Source: an uncultured Spirochaetota bacterium
GTDB taxonomy: Bacteria > Spirochaetota > Spirochaetia > SZUA-6 > Fen-1364
DNA: 64,000 bases
Assembly (NCBI GenBank): GCA_963734545.1
Contig: CAVTHO010000008.1
Span: 608,001-672,000, forward strand
Reading direction: 5' to 3'
Below, in pieces: positions 6,411 to 55,756 of the stretch. Position numbers and translations under genes: made by a program. The notes beneath the pieces are model-generated. The model made no database searches. It was not told the DNA's origin and saw nothing but the letters and a program-made list of their open reading frames with translations. Each line of letters opens with the position of its first letter. The first letter of the stretch is position 1.

Positions 6411-8979
6411 TCATTTTCGGGGCCGCACACCTGATATCGGCTCGGCATCGAGCGGATTCTCCGGCCAGTAGTGCTTCGGATACCGGCCCCGCATCTCCTT
6501 GCGGACCTCGGCATAGGTCGTGCGCCAGAAGCTCGCCAGATCGCTGGTTATCTGAAGGGGCCGTCGGGCGGGGGACAGGAGCCTGAAGGCGAGCGGAACA
6601 CCGCACACGCGGGGGCTTGCGGCCAGACCGAAAACTTCCTGAATGCGCGCCTCCACCGCGGGCTCGGTTCCCTCATAGTCGATGGGGCGCCGCCCGCCGG
6701 TGGGAAGCGTAAGAGTCTCCGGCACCTCCGCTTCGAAAGCTCCCCGATCCGCCCCGAGCAGCGCCTGCAGGGCATCAGACAGCGGCCCCGCCGTGATCAC
6801 CTGCCCTCCCGTGAGCCTCAGAAACGGCTCCAGCCATTCACCGGACCGGGTGGCAAGCCCCGAATCCGACAGGTCACCGAGGCCGCGCTCGGGCCGTTTC
6901 CGCGCGTAAAAACGCATGCGCGCCAGGAGGCCGCGGGTGCGCGCGTTCCACGGCAGGATGCCGATTCCCTGCCGCTGGAGGTGCGCGCCGAATGAGGCGG
7001 CAATCTCCGCCGCAGCCGGACGGGCCGGCCGCTCGCTCAGGGAAAGCCTTCCCGCGCGTCTGACATGGATTCCCTTTGGCACGAGTCCCTCCCAGCGGAT
7101 CTCGAGGGATTCTTCCGCGGCGAGCGCGAGGATCCTGTCCGCCTCCTCCTGGTCCATTGGCGCGGCGAGCCTGATGATCCCCGAGGTCTCGCCCGCATCG
7201 GCATCCGGCGCCGTGATCCAGTGCGCCGCTGCGCGGCTGGCCACGGCGAGCGGATTACGCGCCGCGGTACTCCGCGGGTTCTGCCCCGAGGGGCCGCGGC
7301 CTGATCCGGGAAACCGCGCGACCCGTCCCGTGACCAGCCGGTAGGACCCGTCCGGCTCCCTCCGAGCGATCCGGTCCGGGAACGCATAGCCCAGCAGGTT
7401 GCCCACCCGCTCCTCCTGGTCGACGGTCCAGCCGCGTGTCGCTCCCTCCCGGGCGTGACGAGCGGCGGAGAATGCGCTCCATCTCGAGACCCACGGCCCT
7501 CCGCCATGAATCAGCTCCCCCCCTCCCCGTCCGTATCATTTCCAGCCGGACCCGGAAGTCCGGATCTCCGCCGGCCCCTGAGCCGTCTCTCTCCTCCAGG
7601 ATCGCGGCGCACGCGGCCGCAAGAACGCGCATGTTTCGACCGGCCCCCCGGATGACGAGGACCCCGAGCCGAGGCGCCAGCCCGAGCCCTGCCACGGTTC
7701 GGCCGAGGTCCGTCGGACCGCTGTCGTCGAGCAGATCGAGCATGCGCAGGATCTGCGCGGCCTGGCTCCACGCGGCGGCGGGAGGCGGATCGAGCCATCG
7801 GAGATCCGCGCCGCTGCGCGCGCCCCAGAGGGCGCACTCGAGCACGAGCCCCGAGAGGTCTTCCCGGAGGATCTCGGGGTCCGGCCGGGACAGGAGGCGT
7901 TCCGACTCGGCCCAGAAGCGCACGCAGAGCCCGGGGCCCAGCCTGCCCGCCCGGCCGCGCCTCTGGTCTGCCGAGGATGCGCTCACGCGCTCCGTGACCA
8001 GCCTGTCCAGGCCGGTCGCGGGGTGGAAGCGGGAGAGCCGGGCCCAACCGGAGTCTGCCACCGTGCGAATGCCCGGGACTGTCAGGCTGGTCTCCGCGAC
8101 GGAAGTGGCGAGGATCACCCTTCGCGGCATCGGATCGGTCCGCCCTGCTGCGGCCGCTGTTTCCATCGAACGCCCGATCACCCTCTGCTGCTCCTCCAGG
8201 CGCATGGTCCCGTGCAGGGGCAGGACTTCCGCCCGGCCGCCCAGCAGGCCGGTCAGCCTGGCTCCCACCCGGCGGATCTCCCCCGCCCCGGGAAGGAAAG
8301 CGAGAAGGTCGCCCTCTGTCTCTTCGAACAACCGCGCGGTACCATCGGCAAAGCCCTCCTCCCAGCGTCCTGCCTGCCCCAGTGCCTGATAGCGCGTATC
8401 CACCGGGTGCAGGGAGCCGGGGCAATGCAGGGAGGGCGCGGGGCCGGCCCCGGAACTTCCCAGGAGGGCGGCGACGGACTCGGTGTCCAGGGTGGCGGAC
8501 ATGACCAGGAGCGCGAGATCCCCCCGCGCGCGCCGCACCTCGAGGGCGAGGGCGAGCGCCAGGTCGGCGTGGATCGAGCGCTCGTGAAACTCGTCCAGGA
8601 TCACCAGGCCCACGCCGGCAAGAAGCGGGTCCTCCTGTATCCGGCGCGTGAGCAGCGCCTCCGTCACCACCAGGATCCGCGTGTCCCTGCTCACCCGGGA
8701 GGCGGTGCGCACCGTGTAGCCCGCGCGCCGTCCCAGGGGCTCGCCAAGGAGGTCCGCGATCCTTGCGGACACCGCGACAGCCGCGAGGCGCCGAGGCTCG
8801 AGCATGATGATGGACCGCCCGGCCAGCCATGGCGCGTCCATGAGGTAGGGAGGAACGAGCGTGGACTTGCCGGCGCCGGGTTCTGCCGTCAGGGCGAGCA
8901 CGCGCTGATGCTCGAGAGACTCGGAAATCCGCGGCAGAAAGGGAACGAGCGGCAGGCCCGTCTGGGAGAAGTCCATCAT
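6411..8979 (-). CDS. hrpB: ATP-dependent RNA helicase HrpB (one frameshift near 7410-7440)
   Basis: GAGKST, LEPRRLAA, DEFHER, MSAT, TSVAETSLT, QRRGRAGR, and the C-terminal LLSPARRPLQIT...YPKHYWP HrpB motif. Confidence 0.95.
7250..7283 (-). repeat. Palindromic mini-repeat copy inside hrpB
   Basis: CCGCGG-TACT-CCGCGG at 7262-7277, with a partial second unit 24 bp away. Encodes QNPRSTAARNP. Confidence 0.75.
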
Positions 8980-9019
8980 GTGCGCGGAAGCGACAGGTCC
9001 CGCGGCGGAACGGGACGGC

Positions 9020-9220
9020 TCAGGCGCGCGGAGCCTTCCTTCGCGCGGCACCGAGCACGGTAAGAACGATCCCCACCGCGCCGACGATTGCTCCAATAAC
9101 GGTCCAGAGCGAGTTTCCCGACATGACGGCACTCTGGGTCAGGACGTTGGTCCCCTGGAGCACCCAGACAGCTCCGAGCAGGACAAACAGTATTCCCACG
9201 ATGATAAGGACCCACCTCAT
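9020..9220 (-). CDS. Small two-TM membrane protein
   Basis: Two hydrophobic segments flanking WVLQG...SAVMSGNSLW. GGAGG RBS upstream. Confidence 0.75.
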   Translation of the reverse strand: MRWVLIIVGILFVLLGAVWVLQGTNVLTQSAVMSGNSLWTVIGAIVGAVGIVLTVLGAARRKAPRA

Positions 9221-9280
9221 ATGAAACCTCCCTCAAGGAACCATCCGAATATACTGAAGTTTCGAGGCTCCCGGATGGGC

Positions 9281-53964: not shown

Positions 53965-54787
53965 CTACTTTATCGAGCCCAGCAATCCCGCGACGAATTG
54001 GCGCTGCATGGCGAGGAAACAGTACCAGGACCGGCAGAACGGAAAGGACAACGATGATCATCAGGGCGCCGTACTCTATGGTGTAGGCGCGCATCATTGA
54101 TGACATCGCGATGGGGAGCGTCTTCTTCGTGTCCCCGAGAATGGTCATGAGAGGCCAGAGATAGCTGTTCCACTGCGCAAGAAAGATATAGATGGCCGCG
54201 GACGCGAAGCTCGCCTTCATGGACGGGAAAACGATGCCGAGAAAAATGCGGGATTCACTCGCCCCGTCCACGCGCGCCGCCTCCATGATCTCATTCGGGA
54301 ACATCCTGAAGTTCTGCCGCATGAAGAAGATGATGAAAACCGACATCACCGAGGGCAGAATGATCGCGGCGTGGGTGTTGAGCAGCTTGAAGAAGGCGAC
54401 CAGCCGGAACAGCGGGATGACGAGGGCGATCTGGGGGATGATCAGGGCCAGGAGGAGAACGGCAAATACGGCCTCGCGCGCCTTTGAGCGGTACTTCTCG
54501 AATCCGAAGGCCGCAAACGCGTTTACCGCCACGCCGAAGACCACGGTGAGGAGCGCAATCTTGGCCGAGTTGAAGAAGAACAGGAGGAGGTTGTAGTTCT
54601 TGATCGCCTTCTCGAAATTGCTCCCGAACTCGCGGCCGGGAATGACAATGCCGCGCACCACATCGTTCGGATTCAGCGTCATGCCTACGATCATCCAGAA
54701 GAACGGAAAGACGCAGAGGAACGCGCCGACAAGGAGCAGTATCCAGAGAATGAATCGGCCGAATGATCCGTACTTGACGACAGCCAT
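53965..54787 (-). CDS. Sugar ABC permease (MalG-like), frameshift near 3' end
   Basis: IMEAARVDGAS and WNSYLWPL. The natural end MQRQFVAGLLGSIK* lies in another frame. Confidence 0.88.
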
Positions 54788-55674
54788 CAGTCCCTCCGTC
54801 CCGAGCAGCCTGATCTGGATGAAGGCAAGGACGCCCGCAATGAGGACGATCACGTAGGACAGCGCCGTTGCATAGCCGAAGTCCGAGTTGAGCACGAATG
54901 CCTGCCGGAAGATGTAGAGGGCGGCGGTCATCGTGGCATTGCCCGGACCTCCCTCCCAGGTCAGGATGTTCGGTTCGTCGAAGAGCTGCATCGTGCCGCT
55001 GGTGGAGGTCACGGCGGAGAACAGAATGACCGGGACCAGGAGGGGCAGAGTGATGGCAAAGAACTTGCGCCGCTGGCTGGCCCCGTCCACCTCGGCCGCC
55101 TCGAATATGTCCGTGTCGATGTTCTGGAGCCCGACGAGAAAAAAGATCATGTTGTACCCGGTCCATCGCCATGTCAGGCCCATGATGATCGTCACCTTTG
55201 CCCAGAAAGGATCGCTGAGCCATCCGATGGGCTTGGCGATGAGACCGAAGTTGAGAAAGAGATTGTTGAGCAGCCCGTTCGACTGCAGGAGCATCCTGAA
55301 GATCACGGAGTAGGCGACAAGGGACATGACGCACGGGAGGAAATAGATCATCCTGAACGCTCCCCGGTACCTCTTGATTCCCTGGTTGAGGATAACCGCC
55401 AGGATGAGGGCCAGGAGTATCATCAGGGGGATCTGGACCACCATGAAGAGGAAGTTGTGACCGAGCGCCTGCCAGAAGATGCCGTCCGTGGCCATGCGGA
55501 CGAAATTGCCGAGCCCGACGAGGTATTGATGAAGCCCTTCCACTTGCGCGTGACGAGGAACAGTGACGACAGGATGGGATAGAGCATCAAGGCACAGAAC
55601 AAGGCAATTGCCGGGAGGGCGAAAAGCCAGCCGATTCGATTCAGGTACCGATAGTATGAGCCACTCTTGTTCAC
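54787..55674 (-). CDS. Sugar ABC permease (MalF/LacF-like), frameshifted
   Basis: [17 protein letters not shown] and QLFDEP. GTG start after AGGAG. Confidence 0.88.
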
Positions 55675-55690
55675 GCGACACTCCTCGATC

Positions 55691-55756
55691 TCCGCGGAAT
55701 ACCGCGGAACTCAGTGGAATACCACGGCGAAGACAAATCCGTGGAGTACCACGGCG
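55691..55756 (+). repeat. Three mini-repeat units between the SBP terminator and the permease RBS
   Basis: TCCGCGG-AATA-CCGCGGA, CAGTGG-AATA-CCACGG and AAATCCGTGG-AGTA-CCACGG. Confidence 0.85.

Follow-up and report, generated by a model that had tools for sequence, protein, structure and literature searches.

The small dispersed repeats (SDRs) of cyanobacteria, SDR1-8, reportedly set out by Elhai et al. in 2008, are said to be 21–27 nt long, dispersed, nested even in structural RNA genes, and without a known transposase. One of them, SDR5, inserts precisely within a palindrome (PMC4390886, PMC5861425). Some families of repetitive extragenic palindromes (REPs) lie inside small palindromes, and REPs within genes and in frame are known (PMC3733652). 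TnpA-REP cleaves C|T and joins to that T, excision as a single-stranded circle having been proposed (PMC3333891, PMC8266576); a GTAC guide in one TnpA-REP shifted cleavage to GA and GT (PMC8266576), and Y1 genes of class 3 and class 2.6 carry atypical hairpins that are not of the GTAG type (PMC6006769). How REP-like and SDR-like repeats without an evident transposase originate and move is an open question. Here we examine a family of short hairpin repeats in a 64,000-nt stretch (hereafter the window) of an uncultured Spirochaetota bacterium (assembly GCA_963734545.1, contig CAVTHO010000008.1, positions 608,001 to 672,000). The family is real, mobile and almost restricted to one genus; its members are gained as whole units or arrays, nested in each other's loops and mostly between genes, and one of its classes, the rods, is bounded by fixed ends and enters at purine|T without target duplication. 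We put at about even odds (roughly 0.5) the reading that these are genus-level non-autonomous mini-elements built on one hairpin motif and moved in trans by an HUH-like nick-and-join enzyme.

The host genome, G000, comprises 5.14 Mb in 10 contigs, is 89% complete and contains numerous frameshifts; with 20 relatives it forms the genus set (21 genomes, 69–97% complete), and 40 other genomes of the order serve as outgroup. A sequence-only reading of the window had proposed mini-repeats at nine places, and hairpin units are indeed present at all nine, on both strands, with the core CGG-NNTA-CCG, the RAAT-type leader and the co-varying stem that it described. In G000, the perfect 16-mer CCGCGGAGTACCGCGG occurs 38 times against 0.05 expected under an order-5 Markov model, and a position matrix of 24 columns, seeded on 206 perfect hairpins, gives 367–368 matches of at least 14 bits (the cut-off), grouped in 245 loci. 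Some 6 matches are expected from the Markov-5 simulation, so the genome-wide count, on whose excess over chance the sequence-only reading had staked the family's existence, is far above chance. Stem pairing reaches 93.5% against 81.2 ± 0.5% in column shuffles, and 87.3% against 75.2% when 137 distinct hairpins are considered, with 0 of 1000 shuffles attaining the observed value in either case, although this test is biased toward a positive outcome because perfect hairpins served as seed of the matrix and the copies are related. The units encode no enzyme.

The family is several nested sub-families with different junction rules rather than a single unit. They share the hairpin motif RCG(S)G-NNTA-C(S)CGY, the loops being nearly all NNTA. 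Class A has the form RAAT-hairpin-CGC (at hrpB, leader-CCGCGG-AGTA-CCGCGG-CGC); class C is RAATG-hairpin-CCG, at times fused to an inverted class A unit, as at 39889; class B/E is a 23-nt AAC-hairpin-AG cassette that takes the place of 1–3 bases in a hairpin loop, be it that of an A unit, of a branched repeat with a GTAG foot or of some other hairpin; and the rod class consists of T, a hairpin with an RRTA loop, T and a second hairpin, 30–57 nt in all, forming a closed rod if circular. Singlets make up 166 of the 245 loci, and 113 of the 122 pairs of neighbouring copies are tandem, with periods mostly of 23–28 and locus-specific spacers; the head-to-head doublets previously noticed do exist (39889) but are rare genome-wide, at 9 of 122 pairs. 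The reported lack of a GTAG foot was also confirmed: a GYRG foot stands on the leader strand in only 4 of 368 matches and on the other strand in 28, and CGTC at one end in 19. G000 also contains a distinct branched repeat that does have a GTAG foot (25 copies by pattern, for example C4:588734 and C5:449211) and hosts B cassettes and rods; it is a candidate for a true GTAG-type REP without a RAYT (REP-associated tyrosine transposase). A series of GC-stem units occupies the ribosomal-protein and tuf operon and its surroundings (G000:C9:82000-89000), flanking rpsJ and tuf. CTAG is strongly depleted across G000 (ratio 0.21), and a restriction signature, sought as an excess or a deficit of GTAC or CCGCGG, was rejected.

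In G000 there are 103 T-hairpin-T sites (controls 9–48), and 66 of them have a closed second hairpin; 36 of these closed rods are exactly 30 nt long, and a second group measures about 50–57 nt. A T follows 53 of the 66, with a purine before 52 of those 53. In the part of the relative G014 that was compared (1.99 Mb, about 37% of that genome, 88–90% identical to G000), 43 of 49 closed rods are followed by T, 34 of the 43 with a purine before. Among 122 metagenome loci of the 30-mer, a purine precedes the element in 109 of 109 distinct contexts, the following T being fixed by the search pattern. In the long rods the first hairpin is kept, and the second varies with compensating closing pairs. 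Closed into a circle, the 30-mer is predicted to fold as a dumbbell with a T.T mismatch.

Exact empty sites for rods are available in rRNA. G000 has a dead 23S–5S fragment, which two IS110 copies enclose and which adjoins a broken IS91-like gene, as well as a separate second 5S fragment; the references for comparison were 14 intact copies of 23S and 13 of 5S. The rods of 55 nt in the dead 23S and of 30 nt in the dead 5S both sit at G|TAC, with zero duplication or loss, and the 55-nt rod of the window likewise sits at G|TAC in the loop of a class A hairpin, with nothing duplicated or lost. In 5S there is also a 62-nt insertion of another repeat. In G008 and G015, comparable rRNA fragments have C, B or rod insertions at identical positions; we do not count these as independent because descent through an IS91-like passenger may be shared. 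Class A and C units, 24–27 nt long, behave differently, with a CGC tail as their end, a variable spacer as their start and frequent short direct repeats matching the 3' arm; their junction repeats measure 0–10 nt, with a mode of 0–1, in the 56 resolvable of 103 empty pairs. This heterogeneity rejects a model of fixed target duplication. A model in which class A is a T-first unit with A|T as its target was also discarded, a trailing leader being present in only 5 of 116 cases. Separately, a 545-nt tandem duplication within an rRNA operon (G000:C4:11146-12232) is possibly an assembly artefact.

Comparison among relatives shows that units come and go. The lineage restriction and the empty orthologous sites that the sequence-only reading had anticipated were both found: the strict pattern occurs in 12 of the 20 genus relatives (1–74 copies) and as a single copy in 1 of the 40 other genomes of the order, and 41 of 91 G000 loci are empty in G014 (41 filled, 9 weak). 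In the reverse comparison, 62 of 112 G014 loci are empty in G000, 43 filled and 7 weak, and 29 of 41 shared loci differ by at least 18 nt. The window locus at 45944 occurs in three states, empty in G014, with one unit in a close strain, and with four units and a nested rod in G000; the close-strain contig (run X1) skips 127 nt there, with 5 differences in 276 flanking bases. In a scan of species genomes, 79 of the 80 loci among the matches listed belong to spirochaete assemblies; the remaining one, the sole non-spirochaete record among them, is a five-unit array on a contig of an assembly labelled Acidobacteriota. Viral contigs gave 0 matches to the two repeat patterns searched. Several genomes without class A have the 30-mer rod pattern in abundance, and several class A carriers almost lack it, so rods and class A spread separately.

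The sequence-only reading regarded invasion of coding sequences as a defining trait, which is overstated. Of the 245 loci, 167 lie between genes and 31 within them; a further 21 are C-terminal, 11 N-terminal, 11 over a stop and 4 over a start, as judged on gene calls from a purpose-written hexamer script in which frameshifted genes are split or missed, including the hrpB and AraC copies of the window. Random 24-mers, on the other hand, are 18% intergenic (against 68% of repeat loci) and 63% internal, and we therefore regard the family as extragenic with a tolerated in-frame minority. In-gene copies persist in loops or at termini, at lengths divisible by three. In HrpB, an addition of 8 residues with the hairpin is shared by G000 and G014, G002 has a decayed form, and the hairpin is missing from the other 15 of 18 aligned genomes (G018 was not recovered). 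In an lspA paralogue, 1 of 12 genomes has gained a derived in-frame unit of 8 residues, with a copy of the 10-nt target on either side. In the frame test, 9 of 12 insertions with an empty site in a called gene keep the frame, and the remaining 3 look like mis-called frames. Periods other than multiples of three are common outside genes, and the 13 of 13 in-frame periods within called genes were set aside as circular evidence. Selection suffices to explain the frame, the unit's length being often 24 or 27 nt, and the in-frame copies (hrpB, AraC, the lspA paralogue) are best explained as having survived selection.

In the proposed mechanism, units would be excised as small single-stranded circles, and a trans-acting HUH-like (5'-phosphotyrosine) enzyme would bind the hairpin, cut 5' of T in structured single-stranded DNA and rejoin. 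We infer circles and a nick-and-join enzyme because TnpA-REP cuts 5' of T and joins there, with circle excision in its model. Nesting and tandem rods would follow because each rod insertion recreates the G|T junction, and slippage and gene conversion may afterwards expand, shrink and exchange arrays. The enzyme would be divergent, transient or missing from incomplete genomes. Several observations weigh against this mechanism. No mobilising enzyme was found in the genus genomes among the families searched; G002, which is 96% complete and has 50 strict copies, is without a Y1 match; the replication-strand bias of IS200/IS605 is absent (73 of 137, weak skew); and no circle was observed, the data being contigs, in which circles and rare variants would not be visible, and no raw reads. 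Junctions are not uniform either: class A and C units and B cassettes depart from the purine|T rule, the cassettes replace 1–3 target bases, a 26-nt C unit joined the dead 23S at G|G without duplication, and a third rRNA rod has an altered left flank with its right end exact, so that two of the three rRNA rods are exact. Furthermore, the frame test alone is not significant (multiples of three in 9 of 12 coding against 29 of 64 non-coding insertions, p = 0.11). A narrower version, which we consider possible but less likely than not, is that of a previously undescribed mobility system, in which an enzyme belonging to none of the RAYT, IS200, IS91 and IS110 families would act at purine|T to cut and join rod-shaped circles of 30–57 nt, of single-stranded DNA (or RNA); the enzyme would read the NNTA-loop hairpin beside a T.T mismatch, target hairpin loops, accept any second-arm sequence and spread 24-nt units too.

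The search for such an enzyme covered several families. No RAYT was found at E ≤ 1e-15 in the 21 genus genomes (NF047646), nor above cut-off in G000, and 12 RAYT matches in other families have flanks without such a repeat. Y1_Tnp identifies one canonical IS200 in G000, and the 29 Y1 places in the genus all resemble ordinary IS200 with their own end hairpins, a decayed unit lying within 1.5 kb of only one. In G014, the left ends of two IS200 copies (L020, L027) are replaced by other sequence, which may resemble the 3' end of a group II intron. The Y2_Tnp profile is positive in 11 of 20 relatives; it missed the broken copy of G000, recovered by tblastn, and the flanks of Y2 genes (12 loci and 20 fetched regions) contain no end matching a unit. 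An IS91-like (Y2) element stands at one 23S rRNA position in several genus members, with dead 23S–5S fragments upstream of the transposase, and the rRNA fragments beside IS91-like genes hold 4 repeat insertions in about 1 kb, against a genome average of about 0.05 loci per kb. The two IS110 copies of G000 are 97% identical and adjacent (G000:C8:1-1650 and 4130-5755), with ends unrelated to rods or units; one is inserted into the IS91-like element, at its structured upstream end, and one carries a premature stop. RVT_1 has no match in G000. Cas1 and Relaxase gave none in the 5 genomes searched, a Rep_1 search of 5 genomes was blank but carries no weight since its control was blank too, and tyrosine recombinases are present in 5 of 5 genomes. 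The 23 genes flanked on both sides by elements look, by eye, like housekeeping or unknown ones, and 203 proteins have an H-x-H motif. Across 221 flanking loci there is no recurrent neighbour family and no IS200, IS91-like or IS110 transposase.

Movement might instead need no dedicated enzyme. Host repair could act where a hairpin stalls a fork or extrudes: a 3' end would anneal by microhomology to a copy or array, copy one or more units and return, with gene conversion moving the nested cassettes. Of 94 class A copies that come first in their array, 48% show, upstream, a direct repeat (5 nt or longer) matching the copy's own 3' arm and tail, compared with 12% of controls. This speaks for host repair, as do the 10-nt match already present in the lspA target before insertion, the heterogeneous junctions, the replacement of target bases by B cassettes, as conversion would produce, and the length differences at shared loci. 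It leaves unexplained the exact-ended rods at unrelated rRNA sites without a shared flank, the purine before all 109 contexts, and the rod arms, which conserve structure over sequence, and we regard it as possible but doubtful. A resident transposase working in trans (the IS200 TnpA or IS91-like Y2 transposase of the genus, or an IS110 recombinase whose core is GT) is unlikely. In its favour, the IS200 right end starts AAATCCACCG and ends CGGTGG-ATGC, resembling one class A variant; Y1 matches occur in 9 of the 11 genomes rich in repeats and in 3 of the 10 poor in them (p = 0.03, the genomes being kin and not independent); insertions are dense in rRNA fragments beside IS91-like genes; and G|T at both rod junctions can be read as an IS110-type core. 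Against it, neither rods nor units are matched by any IS200, IS91-like or IS110 end, none of these transposases occurs in the flanks of the 221 repeat loci, the IS91-like gene of G000 is only a broken copy, and the guide-predicted IS200 cut motif follows 1 of 120 hairpins against a background of 3.9%.

Mobility at the RNA level, in which small circular or hairpin RNAs would be joined into transcripts at loops and then written back to DNA, has reportedly been proposed for cyanobacterial SDRs. The rod shape, the targeting of loops of structured sequences including rRNA, and the clustering around ribosomal-protein operon genes would suit it, but G.T wobble pairs are not in excess (30 G.T vs 74 A.C), gene orientation shows no bias (49 vs 43 in co-oriented spacers, 15 vs 16 within genes), the RVT_1 profile is without a match in G000 and rods were inserted into rRNA on both strands, all of which makes it a distinctly improbable route here. 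As to an assembly or sequencing artefact, the numerous frameshifts of G000 are typical of an error-prone assembly; that explanation is already refuted by the recurrence of the same units across many genome assemblies made independently and across metagenome and Logan contigs, and by units that are orthologous between species and decaying by point mutation.

The copies of the window are collected in the table, together with the IS91-like rRNA loci. The gene labels hrpB, permease, AraC, short-chain dehydrogenase/reductase and GH127 given by the sequence-only reading were borne out. Its claim of copies inside all five genes stands for hrpB and AraC, where the insertions are internal, and not for the permease (N-terminal) or for the dehydrogenase/reductase and GH127 genes (terminal). 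Of the peptides it named, KSAEYRG occurs in the permease and NPRSTA in HrpB, while AraC gives MRNPPSTS repeats rather than KSAEYRG. A 24-bp period, claimed at three loci, is present at two (AraC 37856–37950 and 45944–46015); elsewhere the periods are 29 at GH127, 50 at 39889 and 20/27 at 55687. The elements nested in hairpin loops at 37961–37983 and 46025–46079 had been overlooked. Four window loci are intergenic (12657/12726, 31892, 45944, 55691), and no Rfam match was found in the window.

Table. Hairpin-repeat copies in the window, and rRNA loci with IS91-like elements in the genus. Relatives are compared with G000.
Feature	Position	Strand	Context	Relatives and remarks
Class A unit	7259..7282	-	In frame in variable HrpB loop (NPRSTAA)	Second partial head 7247-7257
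Class B cassette, AAC-[7-bp hairpin, AGTA loop]-AG	12654..12676	-	Intergenic, convergent genes	Also in G002; same spacer in G014 holds a rod-class element instead
Host hairpin repeat GGTCGCTCC.GGCGACATTT	12689..12708	+	Further family entered by class B cassettes	21 copies in G000 at ≤1 mismatch
Decayed GCGCGG-GATA-CCGTGC hairpin	12727..12742	+	Intergenic	Under the 14-bit matrix cut-off
Class A unit	29507..29530	+	N-terminal tail of ABC sugar permease (KSAEYRG)	57 nt including the unit missing from G014
Leaderless GCACGG-CGTA-CCGTGC hairpin	31895..31910	+	Between convergent genes	12.7 bits
Four decayed 24-nt units, tandem	37856..37950	+	In frame within AraC-family gene (MRNPPSTS x4)	Array length differs in G014 and G002
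Class B/E cassette	37961..37983	+	Nested in loop of fifth unit of AraC array	
Two 50-nt doublets	39889..39989	.	Each class C (+) fused to inverted class A (-); array provides last codons and stop of short-chain dehydrogenase/reductase gene	G014 without it
Three class A units, period 24	45944..46015	-	Upstream of CHASE2-cyclase gene	
Fourth class A unit	46016..46093	-	Loop split by rod element	
Rod-class element, 55 nt	46025..46079	+	T-GCGG AGTA CCGC-T-long hairpin	Fold z = -3.9
Two decayed units, period 29	47521..47566	-	Provide last codons and stop of GH127 gene	Missing in G014 and G002
Three units, spacing 20 and 27	55687..55757	+	Upstream of permease gene	Missing in G002
IS91-like rRNA loci	G000:C8:2900-3990, end of G000:C10, L444-L446, L448, L453, L459, L460			

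The hrpB gene (window 6411–9132) is split into two frames upstream of its repeat, and many other window genes are similarly split; in hrpB this is probably an assembly indel, because most relatives have one open frame. The AraC-family gene belongs to a tandem pair of paralogues (window 37446–39286), of which only the first has the repeat array.

What is contributed here is the architecture of the rods, their purine|T rule together with empty sites that are exact, and the three states of one window locus. With its exact ends, two-letter target rule and variable cargo arm, the rod class offers a defined substrate for an enzyme hunt. Such an enzyme, if it exists, would be a scarless, structure-directed inserter of single-stranded DNA, and if rods do circulate as closed circles, they would be among the smallest precisely transposing elements. 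The in-frame copies illustrate how ordinary proteins may gain loops of 8–40 residues, an effect already known by itself. The literature searched, with most subscription papers outside its coverage, contains no account of such repeats in Spirochaetia nor of dumbbell intermediates.

Our comparison with described families, REP families and SDR1-8 among them, was made by description, and a match to a published family may exist. Like REPs, the spirochaete units are short, GC-rich, high-copy hairpins that are mostly extragenic, and REPs are described as GC-rich hairpins of 20–40 nt with a conserved foot and short tail, an in-frame minority and variation between relatives (PMC3733652). The foot here, on the other hand, is RAAT, AACT or a single T instead of GT(A/G)G/CGTC, no RAYT was found, and the arrays run head-to-tail, which is rare for REPs (PMC3733652). 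With REPINs, the inverted REP doublets, the rods share junctions that match a dinucleotide cut 5' of T, strand transfer and the proposed single-stranded circles (PMC3116915, PMC3333891, PMC8266576, PMC6006769), and inverted doublets with the leaders outside are present at 39889; yet the inverted doublet is not the dominant form (113 tandem vs 9 inverted pairs), the junction is purine|T and not C|T, and no repeat-flanked transposase gene was found. As for mini-elements derived from IS200/IS605, the likeness extends to the right end only, the predicted cut motif following 1 of 120 hairpins. The defining features of MITEs (miniature inverted-repeat transposable elements) are terminal inverted repeats and a fixed target-site duplication, whereas the junction repeats here vary from 0 to 10 nt and there are none at the exact rRNA sites. 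Rickettsia palindromic elements (RPEs) are, similarly, palindromic repeats tolerated in frame in unrelated proteins (PMC3733652, PMC3184786), but the RPE-1 type measures about 105–146 nt, and the units described here are 23–30 nt, mostly extragenic, nested and tandem.

The likeness to cyanobacterial SDRs lies in units of less than 30 nt that are dispersed, nested and without flanking duplication, the rRNA copies here being in dead fragments. The differences lie in the phylum and the sequence, and in the shared NNTA-loop hairpin, the two-hairpin rod class and the purine|T rule of the spirochaete family. Overall, the family works like REPs and cyanobacterial SDRs, and it lacks what defines GTAG/CGTC REPs, REPINs, MITEs and RPEs.

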